31,897 nt of DNA from a virus (IMGVR_UViG_2724679539_000006:1-31897), one strand, 5' to 3'; counted from the first letter of the stretch, positions 3,276 through 13,004 are shown. Numbers and translations are program-made. Notes: generated by a model not told the origin, from the sequence alone.

Positions 3276-3880
3276 TAAGCAGCCGCTCCTTCTAATTCGT
3301 CTCGTCTGATGTTGTAAACGTCCTGCGCTTTGTGCTGCTCCGGTGTGCCTTCGAGCATCTTCCACGCTTTGGCGAACGCCTGTTTAAGCTCTTCTACGGT
3401 GTTTTTCTGCATTGCTGCGTCAGTGAATGCTTTTAGAACCTGTTCAGGTGTAGGTGATGGTTTTGATTGCTTTGCTGCTGCGTTCTGCTGATGTTTATGC
3501 TCGTCTGTATCTGCATCTTTCGCATCATCAATGCCGAACAAACCATTGAGGCAATACTTGCGTGCATAAGAGCTTGTAGCTCCTGTAACTTGTGCAGAAT
3601 CCATTCCTTTCTTGCTTTCTTCCTCTCGTGCAAGAGCGGTTGCCGTATGACTGTTTTCGCCATCGGTAATAGTTGCCGTGGCTTTCACGTAATACCGATC
3701 ACCAATCAACACAACTTCATCGCTGATTGATAAAAACAGGCCATTCAGTAACGGCTTAACGCCTTCAAGAATGTCTTCGCAGCTTCTGTATTTATATTTA
3801 CCGAATGAGTTGTACTGATTCTTTGGCGCGTTCAGATTCTCCTGAATAGCTGCCAGTCTTGCGTAAAATTCTTTGCTCAT
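3275..3880 (-). CDS. erf: Erf single-strand annealing recombinase
   Basis: MSKEFYARLAAIQENLNAPKNQYNSFGKYKYRSCEDILEG... matches P22 Erf as recalled; ATG start at 3880 (track start is an upstream TTG). Confidence 0.8.
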   Translation of the reverse strand: MSKEFYARLAAIQENLNAPKNQYNSFGKYKYRSCEDILEGVKPLLNGLFLSISDEVVLIGDRYYVKATATITDGENSHTATALAREEESKKGMDSAQVTGATSSYARKYCLNGLFGIDDAKDADTDEHKHQQNAAAKQSKPSPTPEQVLKAFTDAAMQKNTVEELKQAFAKAWKMLEGTPEQHKAQDVYNIRRDELEGAAA

Positions 3881-3969
3881 ATGTTTGTTCTCAGAATGGA
3901 CATGGCCCAAGGAAATAACGCTGATTTAATACTTCAGTCTTTGCCGCATTTAAAAATACGCGAACACCT

Positions 3970-4140
3970 TCACGATCTCCCTTCTGGCGATACATTAACG
4001 CCTGCTGCGTGTACATGCGTCTCTGTAACTTGCTCTCCTTCACTGTGGTTGCAAGTGACATGAATATCTCCTTCGTTACCGATTAATTCTTTCATCTGAC
4101 GAATGAATTCTTCGTCTGACCAGTTATCTGTAAAACTCAT
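3970..4140 (-). CDS. hypothetical small protein (56 aa) at the kil position
   Basis: ATG at 4140 forms an ATGA overlap with the cIII stop; identity as Kil not verifiable from sequence. Confidence 0.4.
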   Translation of the reverse strand: MSFTDNWSDEEFIRQMKELIGNEGDIHVTCNHSEGEQVTETHVHAAGVNVSPEGRS

Positions 4141-4307
4141 GGGCGGCCTTGTTGTTTCAAAATATCCCAAAGCTTTTCGAGCAAACTTTTCATTCTTGGT
4201 TGTTTAAAGTCCGCTCCGGTTAAAATATTTTTTCGTGAATGCTGTACCGATAAAATCGGGTTGAAAGGGCGAACCGATGCCGCCCCTGCAATAGCGAACT
4301 GTTGCAT
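4137..4307 (-). CDS. cIII: CIII regulator (FtsH inhibitor)
   Basis: MQQFAIAGAAS...KSLLEKLWDILKQQGRP resembles lambda CIII (MQYAIAG...SLLERI...LIDILNQPG); AAGGAG RBS before ATG at 4307. Confidence 0.7.
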   Translation of the reverse strand: MQQFAIAGAASVRPFNPILSVQHSRKNILTGADFKQPRMKSLLEKLWDILKQQGRP

Positions 4308-4371
4308 AGGATGCTCCTTCTGTTTGATTGCATAACGAAAACGCCTCGAGTGAAGCGTTATTGGTATGCAT

Positions 4372-4397
4372 ATAAAAAAGCCCTCACATTGGAGGGC
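4372..4397 (-). terminator. putative intrinsic terminator upstream of cIII
   Basis: stem GCCCTC/GAGGGC with 6-nt loop, followed on the minus strand by a U6 run. Confidence 0.4.
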
Positions 4398-4492
4398 AAA
4401 GAAGATTTCCAATAATCAGAACAAGTCGGCTCCTGTTTAGTTACGAGCGACATTGCTCCGTGTATTCACTCGTTGGAATGAATACACAGTGC

Positions 4493-4693
4493 TTATTCGC
4501 GAGCTTTGAGCATTGCGTCTGCAAACTTATATGCAGCGCTTGCTGCATAATTAACAGCTCCATCAGAATCATTATCGATAATCGATGGATTGCTAATCAT
4601 TGCTTGCATAGCCTTTGCCGCGAAGTAATCACGTAATGTCGCATCACTTGCCATTTCTGGGCGTTTGATATCTGCTTCATAAAACTCGCACAT
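4493..4693 (-). CDS. hypothetical protein (66 aa)
   Basis: ATG at 4693 overlaps the upstream stop (ATGA); followed by a 9-bp inverted repeat at 4460-4487. Confidence 0.45.
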   Translation of the reverse strand: MCEFYEADIKRPEMASDATLRDYFAAKAMQAMISNPSIIDNDSDGAVNYAASAAYKFADAMLKARE

Positions 4694-4989
4694 CACTCAC
4701 CTACCAGAGCCTTGCTGATTGCTGCAAGACCTTTATTAACAGCTCCATACCATTCTGGATATGTTGTCGTTGTTCTATTTTTGGATTGCTTAAGTAATAA
4801 CTGAAGTGCTTCGAGAAGGTCAGGTGCTGCCGCTATTAGATTGGCATCTTCAATGCATTGAACTTCCTCACAGATTGCAATATACGAACGCCAGCCTGCG
4901 CCATTTTCAAGAGAGTCTGCCTGGATGATTTTAATATCATCGCCATCCATCATTATTTCCCACTTACCTTCAGTACCTTTAAATCCCAT
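4693..4989 (-). CDS. hypothetical protein (98 aa)
   Basis: ATG at 4989 with GAGG at 6 nt; coupled to the downstream gene. Confidence 0.5.
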   Translation of the reverse strand: MGFKGTEGKWEIMMDGDDIKIIQADSLENGAGWRSYIAICEEVQCIEDANLIAAAPDLLEALQLLLKQSKNRTTTTYPEWYGAVNKGLAAISKALVGE

Positions 4990-5007
4990 GTTAGCCTCTG
5001 TTGTTTA

Positions 5008-5040
5008 TGCCAAAAATAAAGGCCACCATCAGGCAGCCTT
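5008..5040 (-). terminator. putative intrinsic terminator after ral
   Basis: minus-strand hairpin AAGGCUGCC-UGAU-GGUGGCCUU (two G-U pairs) followed by UAUUUUUGG; close sequence relative of the element at 205-233. Confidence 0.4.
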
Positions 5041-5229
5041 GTTGTTCTGTTTACCAATTTCTCTGGCAATCATTGCCGTCGTTCGTATTGCCCATTTATC
5101 GACATATTTCCCATCTTCCATCACAGGAAACATTTCTTCAGGCTTAACCATGCATTCCGATTGCAGCTTGCATCCATTGCATCGTTTGAATTGTCCACAC
5201 CATTGATTCTTATCAATAGTCGTAGTCAT
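5029..5229 (-). CDS. ral: Ral restriction-alleviation protein
   Basis: 66 aa, MTTTIDKNQWCGQFKRCNGCKLQSECMVKPEEMFPVMEDGKYVDKW... matches lambda Ral as recalled. Confidence 0.7.
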   Translation of the reverse strand: MTTTIDKNQWCGQFKRCNGCKLQSECMVKPEEMFPVMEDGKYVDKWAIRTTAMIAREIGKQNNKAA

Positions 5230-5299
5230 ACGGATAGTCCTGGTATTGTTCCATCACATCCTGCGGATGCTCTTCGAACTCTTCAAATTCTTCTTCCAT
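5213..5299 (-). CDS. small acidic peptide (28 aa, MEEEFEEFEEHPQDVMEQYQDYPYDYDY), at the position of lambda orf28
   Basis: not in ORF track (too short); GAGGTG RBS 5 nt upstream of ATG at 5299; 3' end overlaps the ral start. Confidence 0.3.
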   Translation of the reverse strand: MEEEFEEFEEHPQDVMEQYQDYPYDYDY

Positions 5300-5307
5300 A
5301 TCTCACC

Positions 5308-5472
5308 TCAAATAAGTGGTTTGCCGCGAAAATAAATACGTTCCCACCAAGTTCCGTATCTATCTATCCAGTTACACCAATCATCGACACTCCATTTTGT
5401 TGTGTCGCATTTTGGCAATTGGCATGAATATCTACCTTCTTTGTAAAGTCGGCGTTTGATTTTCTTGAGCAT
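5308..5472 (-). CDS. small Cys/Trp-rich protein (54 aa, MLKKIKRRLYKEGRYSCQLPKCD...)
   Basis: not in ORF track; ATG at 5472 lies 8 nt downstream of the N stop and is preceded by GAGGTGG. Confidence 0.3.
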   Translation of the reverse strand: MLKKIKRRLYKEGRYSCQLPKCDTTKWSVDDWCNWIDRYGTWWERIYFRGKPLI

Positions 5473-5479
5473 GACCACC

Positions 5480-5812
5480 TCAATAGTAATAAGCTGGAAT
5501 TGATTTTCCGCGTTGCTTCTGGCGGCCTGAGCAGGTCACACCCATTTCACTGCGTGGCTTGCTGTACCATGTGCGCTGATTCTTGCGCTCAATACGTTGC
5601 AGGTTGCTTTCAATCTGTTCGTGGTATTCAGCCAGCACTGTAAGGTCTATTGGATTCAGTGCGCTTTCTACTCGTGATTTCGGTTTGCGATTCAGCGAGA
5701 GAATAGGGCGGTTAACTGGTTTTGCGCTTACCCCAACCAACAGGGGATTTGCTGCTTTCCATTGAGCCTGTTTCTCTGCGCGACGTTCGCGGCGGCGTGC
5801 TTGTGCATCCAT
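5480..5812 (-). CDS. N: N transcription antiterminator
   Basis: MDAQARRRERRAEKQAQWKAANPLLVGVSAKPVNRPILSLNRKPKSRVESALNPIDLTVLAEY... matches lambda N, including the Arg-rich motif; AGGAG RBS before ATG at 5812. Confidence 0.85.
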   Translation of the reverse strand: MDAQARRRERRAEKQAQWKAANPLLVGVSAKPVNRPILSLNRKPKSRVESALNPIDLTVLAEYHEQIESNLQRIERKNQRTWYSKPRSEMGVTCSGRQKQRGKSIPAYYY

Positions 5813-6146: not shown

Positions 6147-6806
6147 TTAGCTAAATGTCTCTTCAGGCCACTGGCTGGCGATAACTTTCCCTACTACGGA
6201 ACAGCTATCATTGCATGGAATCATTGGATATTGCGGGTTTAGTGGCTGTAGGAACACCTGACCGCTATCCCTGATCAGTTTCTTGAAGGTAAACTCGTCA
6301 CCACCAAGTCTGGCTATGCAGAAATCACCTGGCTCAACAGCCTGCTCAGGGTCAACGAGAATTAACATCCCGTCAGGAAAGCTTGGCTTGGATCCTGTTG
6401 GCGCGGTCATGGAATTACCTTCAACTTCAAGCCAGAACGCACAATCACTGGCTTTTTTGGTTGTGCTGACCCATCTCTCCGCATCACCTTTGGTAAAGGT
6501 TCTAAGCTCAGGCGAGAACATCCCGGCCTGAACATGAGAAAAAACAGGGTACTCATATTGTTTTTTAACGGGGGCAGATGAGTATTCGCCAACAGGTGAA
6601 AATGTACCGTCGTGGTTGAATGAGACGTTATCAATACCAAGGTATTTAAACACCACACCAATCTCGTCAAGAGATGGATGACGAGATCCGCGCAACCAGT
6701 GACCAATTCCACCCTGCGTCATACCAAGCTCTTCAGCTAACTTCTCTTGAGTTATGCCGAGCTCTTTCATTCTGGATCTAGCCAGTTCATACCATTTCAT
6801 TTTCAT
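6147..6806 (-). CDS. cI: CI-type prophage repressor (XRE HTH + S24 LexA-like peptidase domain)
   Basis: N-terminal HTH ([22 protein letters not shown]); C-terminal GNSM...FKKL Ser/Lys dyad region resembling P22 C2; start could be ATG 6806 or 6800. Confidence 0.85.
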
Positions 6807-6862
6807 ACCCTTATTATTACGCTCTGTACTAAAACCATCCATGCACAAGATGTATTTTTTGT

Positions 6863-7275: not shown

Positions 7276-7546
7276 CGAGGCTCTAAGAATCGAGAGTGCG
7301 TTGCTTAACAAAATCGCAATGCTTGGAACTGAGAAGACAGCGGAAGCTGTGGGAGTCGATAAGTCGCAGATCAGCAGGTGGAAGAGGGACTGGATTCCAA
7401 AGTTCTCAATGCTGCTTGCTGTTCTTGAATGGGGTGTCGTCGACGACGACATGGCTCGATTGGCACGACAAGTTGCTTCGATTCTCACCAATAAAAAACG
7501 CCCGGCGGCAACCGAGCGTTCTGAACAAATCCAGATGGAATTCTGA
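7253..7546 (+). CDS. cII: CII transcriptional activator
   Basis: 97 aa, [51 protein letters not shown]... essentially identical to lambda CII as recalled. Confidence 0.9.
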
Positions 7547-7578: not shown

Positions 7579-7725
7579 ATGACAAAACAACTCAGTCCTT
7601 ACCAGGACAAAATTCACAAACACATACTACGTGATCGCTTCCTGTCCAGCTTCAAGCAGCCTGGTCGATTCCGGGCTGAGTTGGAAAAAGTGAAGCTGAT
7701 GCAGAAGGAGAAAGGTCATGAGTAA
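7579..7725 (+). CDS. small hypothetical protein (48 aa, [21 protein letters not shown]...)
   Basis: not in ORF track; AGGAG 5 nt upstream of ATG at 7579; 3' end overlaps the O-like start by 8 nt. Confidence 0.35.
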
Positions 7726-8578
7726 TCTTGCAACCATAACACATTTAAGGCCTTCACAACGGCCTGTGGAGCGTCGTGTGGCAGAAGTTGAAGATGGTTA
7801 TACCCGTCTTGCAAATGCCCTGTATGAAGAGCTTATCGGCGCAGATTTAACGAAAAATCAGAGCAAGGTTGCCCACGCCATATGCCGTAAAACATACGGC
7901 TACGGTAAAAAGATGGATCGCATCTCTGATAGTCAGTTAGCTCAAATTACCAGGCTGCCAAGACAGAAGGTAAACAAGGCCAAGAATGAGCTTATCGCGA
8001 TGAAGGTTATCCTTCGCGAAGGCCAGCAAATCGGGCCTAACAAGAACATCGAAGAATGGCAAATCGAAGGGTGTCACTACTCTGGTGATAATGTCACTGC
8101 ATTGGTGACAAAAAGTGTCACCAAAACGGTGACAGCGCTGTCACCAAAACAGGGACACACAAAAGAAACTATTACAAAAGAAAAAAGAAATAATAAAAAC
8201 ACTATGTCCGAAAGTGTTCGGACGGAGTGTGAAAAATCACCTGACCGTCACGAAGAAATCGACAAGGCATTCGAGGAAATATTCTGGTGTGCAGGCATGC
8301 GGAAAGCCGGGAAGAAAAACGCAGCTTCGGCATTCAGAACACAGTTCAGGGAATGGCGTAAAACTACCAGGGGTACGGCAAGCGAGTTTGCCACGATGCT
8401 GGCAGAAGACATCGCATGCAGGAATGGTAAGCAGTTCGGATTCGACAGGTTGTTACCATCGAGCTACCTGAACGGTCAGCGCTGGAACGACGAGAAGCCA
8501 GAAACTATTCAACCACAATCCAAACCATCATCCGCAATCACCGTATCGAAAACTGGCTACGTGTTTTTCGACAGGTGA
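7718..8578 (+). CDS. O: replication initiator, lambda-O-like N-terminal domain with a different C-terminal domain
   Basis: N-terminus [14 protein letters not shown]...DLTKNQSKV...[25 protein letters not shown] resembles lambda O; AAGGAG RBS; iterons lie inside the gene. Confidence 0.75.
8071..8210 (+). repeat. candidate replication origin: palindromic iterons (GGTGACA-N4/5-TGTCACC) followed by an AT-rich tract
   Basis: at least three dyad iterons at 8084-8145 spaced by AAAAC, then about 50 bp A/T-rich (8160-8210); same layout as lambda ori inside O. Confidence 0.5.
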
Positions 8579-8685
8579 ACCATGAAATCAAAAATCAAAT
8601 CGCTACTGGTCGCTGGTTATAACCACGGCTGGTTAAGTATTTCGTTTGTCGATTTCTGGTTTAAAAATCTCAATCTGAGGGAATC

Positions 8686-9180
8686 ATGATGAGCCTTGAA
8701 GTTGGAGAATATATACCTGGTTATGAGGGTAAATACTCTGTAACCAAAGACGGTCGTGTTTATTCACATTTAAGAGGCAGGTTTTTGAATCCATCTCCGG
8801 ATAACAAGGGTTATCTAAGAGTCACTTTGTGTTCCGATGGGATTCAGAAGACGTTAAAAGTTCATCGTCTTGTAGCTCAATTATTTATCCCAAATCCGTA
8901 TTGCAAGCCAGAAGTAAATCATATCAACGGCGACAAATCGGATAACGCCATTTGGAACTTGGAATGGTGTACCTGCTCAGAGAATTTAAAACATGCTTTT
9001 AGCATCGGACTGAAAAGCGCAAAGGGAGTTTTTAATGGTAGGGCAAAACTATCTGAAACTGATGTGATTGATATCAGGAATTCTGTTGGTATGAAACTAA
9101 GCGAACTATCCACTAAATACGGAGTGAGTGAAATGCAAATTTCCACAATCCGCAGAGGAAACGCATGGAGGCACCTTTGA
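8686..9180 (+). CDS. HNH homing-endonuclease-like protein (NUMOD4-like N-terminus + HNH + C-terminal HTH)
   Basis: GYEGKYSVTKDGRVYS motif, then HRLVAQLF...NHINGDKSDNAIWNLEWCTCSEN (HNH); GAGGGAA RBS. Confidence 0.75.
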   Translation: MMSLEVGEYIPGYEGKYSVTKDGRVYSHLRGRFLNPSPDNKGYLRVTLCSDGIQKTLKVHRLVAQLFIPNPYCKPEVNHINGDKSDNAIWNLEWCTCSENLKHAFSIGLKSAKGVFNGRAKLSETDVIDIRNSVGMKLSELSTKYGVSEMQISTIRRGNAWRHL

Positions 9181-11057
9181 GTCCATCAGAACTCAGTGAC
9201 CTGCTTTGGGCGCAGGTTGACAGGGTGGCTCCGCACCTGTTGCCAAACGGCAAGAAAGAGGGGCATGAGTGGGTTGCCGGTAACGTCAACGGTGACAAGG
9301 GAAACAGCCTTAAGGTCAACCTTAGCGGCAAGAAAAAATGGGCTGATTTCGCTGAGGGAGACGGCGGTGACATGCTTGATTTGTGGATGGCATGTCGTGG
9401 AATTAACCTGCATCAGGCTATGCAGGAAGCGAAAGCCTTTCTCGGAATCAAGGATGACGATCACCATTTCGATGCCAAACGTGAGAAGAAATTCTCCAGA
9501 CCTGACCGCAAGAAAATCGCCCGCTACGTTACCAGAACAGAATCCCATCTTGAGTACCTGCAATCGCGTGGCATATCGCCAGAAATCGTAAAACGCTACG
9601 AGGTTGTCAGCGGCAAGGTGTGGAATGGAGAGCGAGAACTGGATGCTCTGGTGATTCCGTACAAACGCGATGGTGAGTTGTTGCAGGTAAAGCGAATCAG
9701 CACTGAGCGCCCGGACGGGAAGAAAGTCATTATGGCAGAAGGTGATTGCGAACCTTGTCTGTTCGGATGGCAGGCTCTGGACGCTGGCGTGAGGGCGGTT
9801 GTACTTTGCGAAGGCGAAATTGATTGTATGAGCTATGCGCAATACGGCATCTCGGCGTTATCCGTGCCGTTTGGTGGCGGGAAAGGCGCTAAGCAACAGT
9901 GGATTGAGTTTGAGTATCACAACCTCGACAGGTTTGAGGAGATATTCATCTCGATGGACGTTGATGATGTTGGTCGTGAAGCCGCAAGGGAAATCGCAAG
10001 CCGACTCGGTGAACATCGTTGCCGTCTTGTTACTCTGCCGTACAAAGACATCAACGAATGCCTGATGAACGGTGTTACCGAGGATGAAATCTGGCAGTAC
10101 ATCGGCACGGCATCCTACTTCGATCCTGAAGAACTCTACAGTGCGCGAGAGTTTTACCAGGACACTATCAACGCTTTCTACGGCAAGCAGCAGTATCTGT
10201 TTAATCCACCGTGGGAATCTCTGGCAGATAAATTCCAGTTCCGTGAGGCAGAGTTGACGCTGGTCAATGGTGTGAACGGTCACGGAAAAACGGAGGTTGT
10301 CGGGCATATGGCACTTGAGGCAATGCGTCAGGGTGTGAAGACGTGCATCGCGTCACTTGAGCTGAAGCCAGGCATTCTCCTTAAGCGACTTACCCGTCAG
10401 GCAACGTGCTGCAAGATGCCGCCAGTGCTGGAAATTGACTCTGCATTTAAATTTTATGACGAAAGACTTTGGGTGTTTGGCCTGACCGGAACGGCGAAAG
10501 CCGACAGGCTGATCGAAATATTCGACTACGCTCGCCGCCGATACGGTATCCAGTTATTCATCATCGACAGCCTGATGAAATGTGGCATAGGCGACGATGA
10601 CTATAACGGGCAGAAGGCGTTTGTTGACTCGATTTGCGACTTCAAAAACAAAACAAACTCCCACGTCATTCTCGTTACTCACTCGCGAAAAGGAGACAGC
10701 GAAGAAAAACCAACCGGGAAAATGGACGTAAAAGGCTCTGGAGCGATAACAGACCTGACAGACAACCTTTTCATCATCTGGCGTAACAAGGCTCGCGAGA
10801 GAGCGTTACAGAGAGTTCAGAGTGGTGAAAAGATGTCAGAGAAGGACGAACAGCTACTGGCATCTCCGGCATCTGTTTTGATGCTTGAAAAACAACGTAA
10901 CGGCGAAGGTTGGGAGGGTGGTGTCCCGTTGTTCCTTGACGAGCAATCGCACCAGTTCCTGCAACTTGAATCAGGATCGCCATATAGCTACATCGCCAAT
11001 ATGCCGAAATCGGAATATGACGAGGCGTGGCGACAGGAAAACGTGACGGAGTATTAA
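9165..11057 (+). CDS. bifunctional DNA primase-helicase (TOPRIM + RecA/DnaB-like helicase)
   Basis: TOPRIM acidic motifs (CEGEID, MDVDDVG); Walker A NGVNGHGKTE; Walker B LFIIDSLMK; 630 aa. Confidence 0.8.
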   Translation: MEAPLSPSELSDLLWAQVDRVAPHLLPNGKKEGHEWVAGNVNGDKGNSLKVNLSGKKKWADFAEGDGGDMLDLWMACRGINLHQAMQEAKAFLGIKDDDHHFDAKREKKFSRPDRKKIARYVTRTESHLEYLQSRGISPEIVKRYEVVSGKVWNGERELDALVIPYKRDGELLQVKRISTERPDGKKVIMAEGDCEPCLFGWQALDAGVRAVVLCEGEIDCMSYAQYGISALSVPFGGGKGAKQQWIEFEYHNLDRFEEIFISMDVDDVGREAAREIASRLGEHRCRLVTLPYKDINECLMNGVTEDEIWQYIGTASYFDPEELYSAREFYQDTINAFYGKQQYLFNPPWESLADKFQFREAELTLVNGVNGHGKTEVVGHMALEAMRQGVKTCIASLELKPGILLKRLTRQATCCKMPPVLEIDSAFKFYDERLWVFGLTGTAKADRLIEIFDYARRRYGIQLFIIDSLMKCGIGDDDYNGQKAFVDSICDFKNKTNSHVILVTHSRKGDSEEKPTGKMDVKGSGAITDLTDNLFIIWRNKARERALQRVQSGEKMSEKDEQLLASPASVLMLEKQRNGEGWEGGVPLFLDEQSHQFLQLESGSPYSYIANMPKSEYDEAWRQENVTEY

Positions 11058-11086: not shown

Positions 11087-11118
11087 AGGCCTGCTGGTAA
11101 TCGCAGGCCTTTTTATTT
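11087..11118 (+). terminator. intrinsic terminator (tR2 position, upstream of ninB)
   Basis: stem AGGCCTGC/GCAGGCCT with 8-nt loop, followed by TTTTTATTT. Confidence 0.65.
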
Positions 11119-12278: not shown

Positions 12279-12445
12279 TTGACCCAAATCGAAGTTACGA
12301 ACAAGAAAGCGTCGAGCGGGCTTTAACGTGCGCTAACTGCGGTCAGAAGCTGCATGTGCTGGAAGTTCACGTGTGCTCCGATTGCTGCGCAGAACTGATG
12401 AGCGATCCGAATAGCTCAATGTACGAGGAAGAAGACGATGGCTAA
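12275..12445 (+). CDS. ninF: NinF
   Basis: not in ORF track (56 aa); GTG start overlapping the ninE stop; ...[24 protein letters not shown]...[15 protein letters not shown] resembles lambda NinF. Confidence 0.55.
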
Positions 12446-13004
12446 ACCAGCGCGAAGACGATGTAACCGTAAAAGAGAAGATTTAACTGTTAAAAGGATA
12501 TTTGAGTTACTAAGTTTCGATAAATCTACCGGGGTATTTAGATGGAAAGTTCCCACTCAGGGAAGGATAGCATTAAATAGTATTGCTGGAACTTTTGATT
12601 CCAACGGTTATTCAATGATCATGATAGATGGGCGTAGATATAAAACTCACGTCTTAGTTTTTTACATAACTCATAATCGTTGGCCTGCTGGTCAAATTGA
12701 CCACGTCAATGGAATTAGGACCGACAATAGGCCAGAAAATTTAAGAGAATGCCTGCCAATAGAAAATTCAAGAAATATAAGGATCCGAAAGAATAGCAAA
12801 TCAGGTTGCAGAGGAGTTACTTGGCACAAACGACAGAAAAAATGGAATGTTAGGCTAGGTTTCCATGGCAAGAGTAAACACTTCGGATGCTTTGATGATC
12901 TGGAGTTAGCGGTACTAGTTGCTGAAGAAGCCCGAGATAAGTATTACGGTGATTTTTCCGGCAACGAAAGGAGCACTTATGCGAATCTATCGAAGGAAAT
13001 GTAA
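12438..13004 (+). CDS. HNH endonuclease with AP2 DNA-binding domain
   Basis: [34 protein letters not shown] (HNH) followed by [37 protein letters not shown] (AP2-like); first 9 codons MAKPARRRC equal the lambda NinG start as recalled. Confidence 0.75.

Follow-up and report, generated by a model that had tools for sequence, protein, structure and literature searches.

The viral DNA stretch IMGVR_UViG_2724679539_000006:1-31897 (31,897 nucleotides (nt); hereafter the window, which always means this whole stretch) carries a replication module composed of a gene for an O-type initiator with an origin inside it, a conserved 35-codon open reading frame (ORF) and a gene for a bifunctional primase–helicase of the T7 gp4/Twinkle family (Table 1). 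The module is the ES18-type replication module of lambda-like prophages, which is already catalogued and not new. The initiator has an N-terminal domain of the lambda O kind and a different C-terminal domain, the origin has the anatomy of ori-lambda, the catalytic motifs of the primase–helicase are intact, no homologue of lambda P is found in the window, and the C-terminal domain of the initiator is strictly linked with the primase–helicase gene among relatives. We consider it probable that the initiator builds an O-some on this origin and that its C-terminal domain docks the phage's own gp4-type helicase–primase there, so that initiation would proceed without host DnaB and without a helicase loader.

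The initiator and the origin inside its gene

By sequence, the initiator belongs to the lambda O family through its N-terminal domain alone. Residues 20–114 match the Pfam family Phage_rep_O (PF04492) with an E-value of 1.1e-37 (128.8 bits; cutoff, 28.7), and the protein is also above the threshold of TIGR01610, phage_O_Nterm (E-value 1.6e-30, 105.4 bits; cutoff, 45.5). Residues 1–157 show 50% identity to residues 1–155 of lambda O in BLASTP. These matches bear out the lambda-O-like N-terminal DNA-binding domain that was proposed in an earlier reading of this DNA made from the sequence alone (the sequence-only reading). That reading had also called the C-terminal domain different, and in agreement with this, BLASTP gives no alignment with lambda O beyond residue 157, and a forced MAFFT alignment of the two C-terminal halves shows only a few scattered shared residues. 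The identity of the initiator is 99% to mEp043 O and 68% to ES18 gp59. The C-terminal domain of the window is 86–99% identical to those of mEp043, ES18 and 24B although the N-terminal domains of these phages are of three kinds.

An AlphaFold2 model of the initiator, built from a 14-sequence alignment, is of low confidence, with a mean predicted local distance difference test score (pLDDT) of 50.5 and a predicted template modelling score (pTM) of 0.33. It has helices and strands at residues 21–107, no confident structure at residues 110–175 and three helices at residues 177–234. The model is consistent with a winged-helix N-terminal domain, a disordered linker (residues 110–175) and a small helical C-terminal domain, and thus compatible with a modular initiator. 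A sequence search of the PDB with the initiator gives no match at E ≤ 1.

The iterons and the A-rich tract of the origin code for linker residues 110–175. A repeat search finds four iteron copies, TGTCACTACTCTGGTGATA, TGTCACTGCATTGGTGACA, TGTCACCAAAACGGTGACA and TGTCACCAAAACAGGGACA, whose start-to-start spacing of 20/24/23 equals that of the four annotated iterons of lambda and that of the ES18 iterons found by the same search. The pattern TGTCAC-N7-GTGACA with up to two mismatches occurs six times in the 31.9-kb window against 1.38 expected, a number reached in 0 of 100 shuffles, and four of the six matches make up the iteron cluster. The sequence-only reading had written the iterons as GGTGACA-N4/5-TGTCACC. 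Both strings are present, with N5 at 8104–8122 and N4 at 8128–8145, but their register is shifted by half a repeat, and each of them spans the boundary from one unit to the next. The AT-rich tract that it had placed within 8071–8210 corresponds to the A-rich tract directly right of the iterons, which overlaps the lowest-GC 43-mer of the entire window and aligns with the A/T-rich region of ori-lambda. The order of iterons, A/T-rich tract and palindrome is thus a point-for-point copy of ori-lambda with a differing half-site sequence.

Four N-terminal domain/iteron specificities are joined to a common C-terminal domain, 35-residue ORF and primase–helicase. The N-terminal domain shared by the window and mEp043, and by the related loci L005 and L006, goes with TGTCACC/GGTGACA iterons, and the lambda-type domain of lambda, ES18, L008 and L013 goes with ATCCCTC/GAGGGAT iterons. 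Loci L007 and L009, whose N-terminal domains are 42–43% identical to that of the window, have iterons of the form TTAGCGG..CTGCTAA, TTAGCGGAACCTGCTAA. The N-terminal domain of 24B matches HTH_36, not Phage_rep_O, and its iteron is GGGGTGGGGCAGGAGCTGCCC. The 24/23 iteron spacing is constant across all four types. Since iteron sequence and N-terminal domain type vary together, which is the best evidence available here for DNA binding, the repeats are probably the binding sites of the N-terminal domain. For the same reason, it would be the C-terminal domain rather than the N-terminal domain that is matched to the primase–helicase.

As the repeats are located in coding sequence, and the peptide that they specify is repetitive and probably disordered, one alternative is that they are a by-product of coding for a repetitive VT-K-VT-K linker and that the real origin lies elsewhere. 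This is very improbable in our judgement: the number of repeats and their spacing are those of ori-lambda, dyad symmetry is a property of the DNA and not of the protein, the repeat sequence switches along with the DNA-binding domain in four independent types, and the stretch of lowest GC content in the window follows directly.

Linkage of the C-terminal domain with the primase–helicase

Megablast comparison with sequenced phages shows that mEp043, Sf101 and vB_EcoP-720R6 (98.4–98.6% identity) and SEN22 (91%) match all of the module but an HNH endonuclease gene that precedes the primase–helicase gene in the window. ES18, epsilon34, GE_vB_TR, the Shiga toxin 2 (Stx2) phages 24B, Min27, F403, F451 and Xuzhou21, and others match at 87.9–98.4% only from about query position 428–477 onward, which covers the right half of the origin, the C-terminal domain, the small ORF and the primase–helicase. 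A scan of one genome per species adds loci from Shimwellia, Pseudescherichia, [Erwinia] mediterraneensis, Leclercia and Pseudocitrobacter. A further candidate from Massilia (L011) was rejected as a spurious match in a GC-rich non-phage region. In all eight fetched loci of relatives with a full C-terminal domain (64–99% identity), the primase–helicase (78–99% identity) begins about 100–120 nt downstream.

The same pairing recurs at a greater distance. A distant prophage of Paenalcaligenes niemegkensis (L010; NZ_JAKGCT010000003, 3521-5540) encodes an initiator whose C-terminus carries the motif FDIFWSAYPKK... of the window's initiator and whose N-terminus has no Pfam match. The initiator gene is followed by a 114-residue ORF and then by a helicase-only protein of superfamily 4 (SF4) that is 38% identical to residues 349–598 of the primase–helicase. 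Because the C-terminal motif is paired here with a helicase-only protein, this locus points to the helicase domain as the partner of the C-terminal domain.

Searched by itself for homologues, the C-terminal domain brought up mainly truncated proteins of near-identical sequence. A profile search with the same domain gives 1,259 matches, and the best 120 of the 1,259 are all close relatives. The module is common in E. coli and Salmonella. It is present in 298 of 5,426 complete E. coli genomes (about 5%), including Stx2-converting prophages, and in Salmonella single initiator protein clusters occur on at least about 1,000 contigs.

The sequence-only reading had a TOPRIM primase–helicase standing in for a DnaB loader, and the searches for a loader or a P-like gene elsewhere in the window agree with it. 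With lambda P as the query, tblastn against the window gives a best E-value of 0.86. Among 28 ORFs of the window, including the main ones of the early operons, the Pfam scan finds no Phage_lambda_P, DnaC/IstB or DnaB-type domain besides the primase–helicase. A lambda route is nevertheless conceivable, in which the C-terminal domain and/or the 35-residue protein would act as a minimal loader of host DnaB and the primase–helicase would serve a later step, such as rolling-circle replication or fork restart, or an unrelated function. The origin layout is nearly superimposable on ori-lambda, the conserved 35-residue ORF has no assigned role, and the contact between initiator and primase–helicase is a putative one. 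However, the searches of the window bring up nothing similar to lambda P, DnaC or another loader, and the initiator's C-terminal domain differs from the C-terminus with which lambda O binds P. In every relative examined this domain is linked to the primase–helicase gene, which stands at the exact position of P and is translationally coupled through the small ORF, and the distant Paenalcaligenes locus retains the pairing of the C-terminal motif with a helicase. The involvement of DnaB is therefore improbable.

The 35-codon ORF and the hairpin

According to the sequence-only reading, the primase–helicase gene was the next replication gene after the initiator gene. The large gene is present, but it is not adjacent: the 35-codon ORF and the HNH gene intervene. 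The 35-residue peptide with the core LL(I/V)AGYNHG(W/L)(L/I)S is found in 9 of the 9 loci compared, ranging from Escherichia to Leclercia, Pseudocitrobacter and [Erwinia] mediterraneensis. The ORF of the window ends in an ATGA overlap between stop and following start codon, and in the relatives the ORF extends with its stop to the beginning of the primase–helicase match. We regard this conserved ORF as a genuine third gene of the module.

The palindrome at the right edge of the A-rich tract, folded as single-stranded DNA, gives a hairpin of -11.9 kcal/mol with a z-score of -5.6. In an alignment of seven distinct diverged loci, 85.7% of the cells of its 13-pair stem are paired, a level matched by 3 of 500 column shuffles, whereas slid controls are 18–53% paired. 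Three pairs of the stem are altered on both sides, for example from T-A to C-G at columns 16/31, and the peptide encoded by the hairpin differs among relatives while the pairing stays. These features of seven related sequences are suggestive of a role at the DNA level beside the unwinding element, for example as helicase entry or first priming site. In a three-way alignment the block shared by the modules starts within or just past the A-rich tract, and so the palindrome belongs to the block that travels with the primase–helicase and not to the one that carries the iterons. Lambda has a different, unrelated palindrome at the equivalent position.

The primase–helicase

From its sequence matches, the large protein is assigned to the gp4/Twinkle family as a member without a zinc finger. 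Pfam assigns Toprim_2 (E-value 3e-12), AAA_25 and DnaB_C to it, and it belongs to phrog_239, DNA primase/helicase (E-value 1.7e-171). In the PDB search, residues 196–543 match T7 gp4 structures with an E-value of 3e-23, and Twinkle is matched at 6.5e-14. The motifs of SF4 helicases are kept relative to T7 gp4, namely GHGKT (Walker A), ASLE, IIDS (Walker B), THSRK and KGSGA, and the arginine finger KQRNG is kept against T7 KCRFTG by manual reading of a stretch that MAFFT misaligned. About the first 150 residues correspond to positions 27–155 of the DnaG N-terminal model TIGR01391 (E-value 1.3e-9). A Cys4 zinc ribbon is not found: residues 1–120 contain one Cys, at position 77.

The sequence-only reading gave this protein as a TOPRIM primase–helicase of 630 residues. 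Its identity as a TOPRIM and helicase protein holds, but the length is in doubt. The homologues have 626 residues, a GGAGG lies 5 nt upstream of the TTG at 9177, which overlaps the stop codon of the HNH gene (TTGA), and PGAP chose the equivalent start in E. coli TUM1880. The true start may therefore be this TTG, in which case 630 residues is four too many.

It is also conceivable that the protein serves as the replicative helicase only, its primase half being inactive or having another role, and that host DnaG primes, so that initiation would be independent of DnaB and DnaC and not of DnaG. The DnaG-like N-terminal region, in which all four zinc ligands are lost in the alignment with T7 gp4, fits this alternative, as does the Paenalcaligenes locus, where the related initiator C-terminus is accompanied by a helicase-only relative, so that the helicase half can work without a fused primase. 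Against it, the acidic TOPRIM residues (EGEID, DVDD and KDINE) are intact, and the primase half is 78–99% conserved across genera, which argues for selection on some activity. We regard the helicase-only alternative as unlikely, though deserving of more weight than a route through DnaB.

The C-terminus of the primase–helicase (11025–11057) is an acidic tail with a terminal Tyr, ...SEYDEAWRQENVTEY. It is similar to the tail through which T7 gp4 binds its polymerase, which has Phe at its end, and to the tails of single-stranded-DNA-binding proteins. The tail may serve to contact proteins of the host replisome.

A model for initiation and its weak points

Docking of the gp4-type enzyme by the initiator would proceed as follows. 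Dimers of the winged-helix N-terminal domain would bind the four iterons inside their own gene and form an O-some like that of lambda, with which the origin shares iteron number and spacing. Iteron binding would distort the origin and destabilise the adjoining A-rich tract, which would then open. The non-lambda C-terminal domain would recruit the hexameric gp4-like helicase–primase of the phage to the opened DNA, and the 35-residue protein and the hairpin may assist docking. The hexamer would unwind and probably prime, so that neither host DnaB nor loading by DnaC/P would be needed, and possibly DnaG would not be needed either. Since no DNA polymerase gene is found among the ORFs scanned, synthesis would be carried out by host DNA polymerase III (Pol III). 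The host-helicase-independent initiation suggested in the sequence-only reading is plausible from gene content. Recruitment through the C-terminal domain and independence from DnaB, DnaC and DnaG are inferences.

Several points weigh against this model. The C-terminal domain and the primase–helicase do not keep exact pace in their divergence (64% against 92% identity at locus L009), and their co-adaptation is therefore loose. The structural model of the initiator, with a pLDDT of 50, is too weak to give the fold of the C-terminal domain or a docking surface. The window lacks part of the prophage, and a loader gene outside it remains conceivable. With a single Cys in the first 120 residues and no zinc ribbon in the primase–helicase, host DnaG may prime instead. 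The coupling of a gp4-type helicase to host Pol III is a supposition of the model, and the literature searched yields no experiment on the module.

A more specific form of the model would have the hairpin, the C-terminal domain and the 35-residue protein make up a dedicated loader that places the gp4-type helicase–primase on an O-some of the lambda type and determines where priming first occurs. We put this forward as a tentative idea that may well prove wrong.

If this more specific form holds, the module would be a hybrid replisome of natural origin and very wide occurrence, with a T7-like helicase–primase driving host Pol III; neither the loading nor the polymerase coupling of such a replisome is known to have been described. 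The module is worth noting for how an O-some would hand opened DNA over to a gp4-type helicase and how that helicase would be coupled to host Pol III. The natural swaps, in which four origin specificities stand on one unit of C-terminal domain and primase–helicase, form a ready-made map of domain function, and such a map could guide work on the replication of Shiga-toxin phages, which is tied to toxin output (PMC8044961).

Selfish elements in the primase–helicase gene

The HNH gene is a selfish insertion of the free-standing homing-endonuclease type and plays no working part in replication. The phages mEp043, ES18 and 24B lack it, and the alignment shows a clean insertion that starts at the start codon of the primase–helicase gene, with borders at about 8686 and 9200. 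The inserted gene occupies the former ribosome-binding site and ATG of the primase–helicase gene, and the cassette supplies a replacement 5' end, CCATCAGAACTCAGTGAC against CCAAGTGAACTTAGCGAC. Both encode PSELSD, and 6 of the 18 bases differ, all synonymously. Judged by the known behaviour of free-standing homing endonucleases, such recoding would be expected if the endonuclease target lies there and the occupied allele is immune.

Among the matches listed, the insertion is found in five E. coli genomes, four of which match the whole query, the fifth being TUM1880. None of the INPHARED phages has it at high identity. In TUM1880 the insertion sits in a module with a lambda-type N-terminal domain, and therefore it has moved between module variants. 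At the same locus (L013; NZ_CP135706, 4423-5631), the gene of an IS4-like ISVsa5 transposase directly follows the primase–helicase gene and replaces the ninB side.

In 24B (L004; HM208303, about 4112-5098), the gene annotated 'P' is the same primase–helicase gene with an insert of about 330 residues at Walker A. The insert carries Hint and LAGLIDADG homing-endonuclease domains and is therefore an intein. In Min27, F403 and F451 the match to the primase–helicase gene is broken into several pieces and spans a similarly enlarged stretch, which suggests that they may carry the insert of 24B. Taken together, the HNH insertion and the intein make the primase–helicase gene a target of two different selfish elements.

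Genomic context

The window is part of a P22-like lambdoid phage or prophage and does not contain the whole prophage. Leftward of the immunity region are genes for Erf, Abc2 (anti-RecBCD) and an N-type antiterminator. Rightward, cro, cII and a DUF2740 ORF precede the replication region, which is followed by genes for NinB, Dam, a second HNH protein, NinG, a phosphatase, Q, lysis proteins and Rha. Further right are the small and large terminase subunits and then additional large ORFs beyond those scanned. From this gene order, the replication region has the position of lambda O, P and ren. A terminator scan places a terminator-like hairpin at the end of the module, presumably similar to lambda tR2. 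A second strong terminator-like hairpin lies antisense at the end of cII, and we take it to resemble the lambda oop terminator. The second HNH gene, which has an HNH_3 match and a weak AP2 domain match, lies in the nin region between ORFs of ninE/ninF size and ninG, and it overlaps the start of the NinG ORF. In the window, no Rfam family is found at the gathering score and a promoter scan shows no enrichment. DnaA boxes number 3 against 2.9 expected, giving no sign of DnaA involvement.

Table 1. Features of the replication module and its surroundings, in window coordinates
Feature	Position	Strand	Description
cI-type repressor gene	6147-6848	-	
Second strong terminator-like hairpin	7495-7522	-	
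O-type replication initiator gene	7718-8578	+	286 residues; predicted winged-helix N-terminal domain, origin-carrying disordered linker, non-lambda C-terminal domain
Four 19-bp dyad iterons, TGTCACC-N5-GGTGACA	8072-8157		copies at 8072-8090, 8092-8110, 8116-8134 and 8139-8157
A-rich tract	8158-8200		putative DNA-unwinding element; 70% A on + strand; GC 0.19 against 0.48 for the window
Imperfect palindrome ACACTATGTCCGAA / TTCGGACGGAGTGT	8199-8230		inverted repeat; adjoins the A-rich tract on its right
Coding region of the initiator C-terminal domain	8204-8578	+	residues 163-286; putative docking domain for the primase-helicase; phrog_33384, E-value 9e-88
Conserved 35-codon ORF	8582-8689	+	peptide MKSKIKSLLVAGYNHGWLSISFVDFWFKNLNLRES; homologue of ES18 gp60; phrog_21848, E-value 4e-26
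NUMOD4/HNH endonuclease gene	8686-9180	+	164 residues; Pfam NUMOD4, E-value 1.6e-10, and HNH_3, E-value 2.3e-9; phrog_59, E-value 1e-56
Bifunctional primase-helicase gene, T7 gp4/Twinkle family	9165-11057 or 9177-11057	+	630 residues from ATG or 626 residues from TTG; Pfam, phrog and PDB matches
TOPRIM domain	9801-10064		residues 213-300; EGEID, DVDD and KDINE aligned to their T7 gp4 equivalents
SF4 helicase core	10239-10958		residues 359-598; Walker A GHGKT at 10278-10292
Intrinsic-terminator-like hairpin	11087-11110	+	8-bp stem with 6 GC pairs, then a T run; closes the replication module ahead of ninB
Second HNH endonuclease gene	12438-13004		

Comparison with known replication systems

The gene order of the module is common to the ES18-type modules, which include ES18 (genes 59-60-61), epsilon34, mEp043, Sf101, SEN22 and the Stx2 phages 24B, Min27, F403 and F451. 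In the ES18 record (AY736146), gp59 is annotated as similar to lambda gpO, a replication origin similar to lambda ori is placed inside gene 59, gp60 is also annotated, and gp61 is a putative primase/helicase similar to T7 gene 4. The epsilon34 origin-binding protein has been described as a lambda-like N-terminal domain on an ES18-type remainder (PMC2629481), and the ES18-type module has likewise been read as an O-like initiator with a primase–helicase (PMC2629481, PMC10307801). The hybrid architecture noted in the sequence-only reading is real, but it is a known and widespread type (AY736146; mEp043 and Sf101 at 98.5% identity) rather than a noteworthy one. Its discovery value is small: annotation of the type goes back to the ES18 record, published phages contain this variant, and the module occurs in about 5% of complete E. 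coli genomes. No Eru label, from the classification of Stx phages in PMC8044961 and PMC8951638, is assigned to the module.

Within the ES18 type, mEp043 and Sf101 share 98.5% DNA identity with the window over the whole module. ES18 is 96% identical in the C-terminal domain (C-terminal 124 residues), about 94% in the small ORF and 94% in the primase–helicase. ES18 and epsilon34 have an N-terminal domain of lambda specificity with lambda iterons, whereas the window has the mEp043-type domain (about 50% identity) with TGTCACC/GGTGACA iterons. The window also has the HNH gene at the start of the primase–helicase gene; in 24B, and probably in Min27, the primase–helicase has an intein instead.

In lambda as in the window, the initiator gene contains four 19-bp dyad iterons, spaced 20/24/23 and with a centre of the AAAAC type, which are followed by an A/T-rich tract and then a palindrome, and the module occupies the equivalent slot of the pR operon, between cII and ninB. 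The differences are the half-site sequence, the C-terminal domain as judged by BLASTP, and the presence of P where the window has the gp4-type primase–helicase. The gene 18/gene 12 module of P22, another lambdoid solution, also combines an O-like initiator with a phage-encoded helicase in place of a loader (PMC10307801). P22 gp12 is, however, a DnaB-type helicase without a primase domain, and the ES18-type primase–helicase is nonhomologous to the DnaB-like helicases of P22-type modules (PMC10307801).

Two further systems are functional analogues only, and no membership is claimed. Plasmid RSF1010 (RepC, RepA and RepB') and the alpha protein of satellite phage P4 have their own origin recognition, helicase and primase and do not use host DnaA, DnaB, DnaC or DnaG, while they use host Pol III. 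The RSF1010 origin combines iterons with an A/T-rich tract and with hairpins that act as priming signals. P4 alpha, a superfamily-3 helicase, itself performs the recognition of the origin.

The primase–helicase of the window resembles T7 gp4 and Twinkle in the homology of its TOPRIM and helicase domains and in an equal set of motifs, and the acidic tail of T7 gp4 also ends in an aromatic residue. T7 gp4 needs its Cys4 zinc ribbon to recognise the template, and human Twinkle, in which the ribbon is lacking, is not known to prime. The enzyme of the window is without this ribbon. It belongs to a temperate phage in which no DNA polymerase gene is found among the ORFs scanned, and it would thus have to work with host Pol III. 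T7 initiates from promoter-primed origins; unlike T7, the module of the window would rely on a separate iteron-binding initiator that targets the primase–helicase to the origin.

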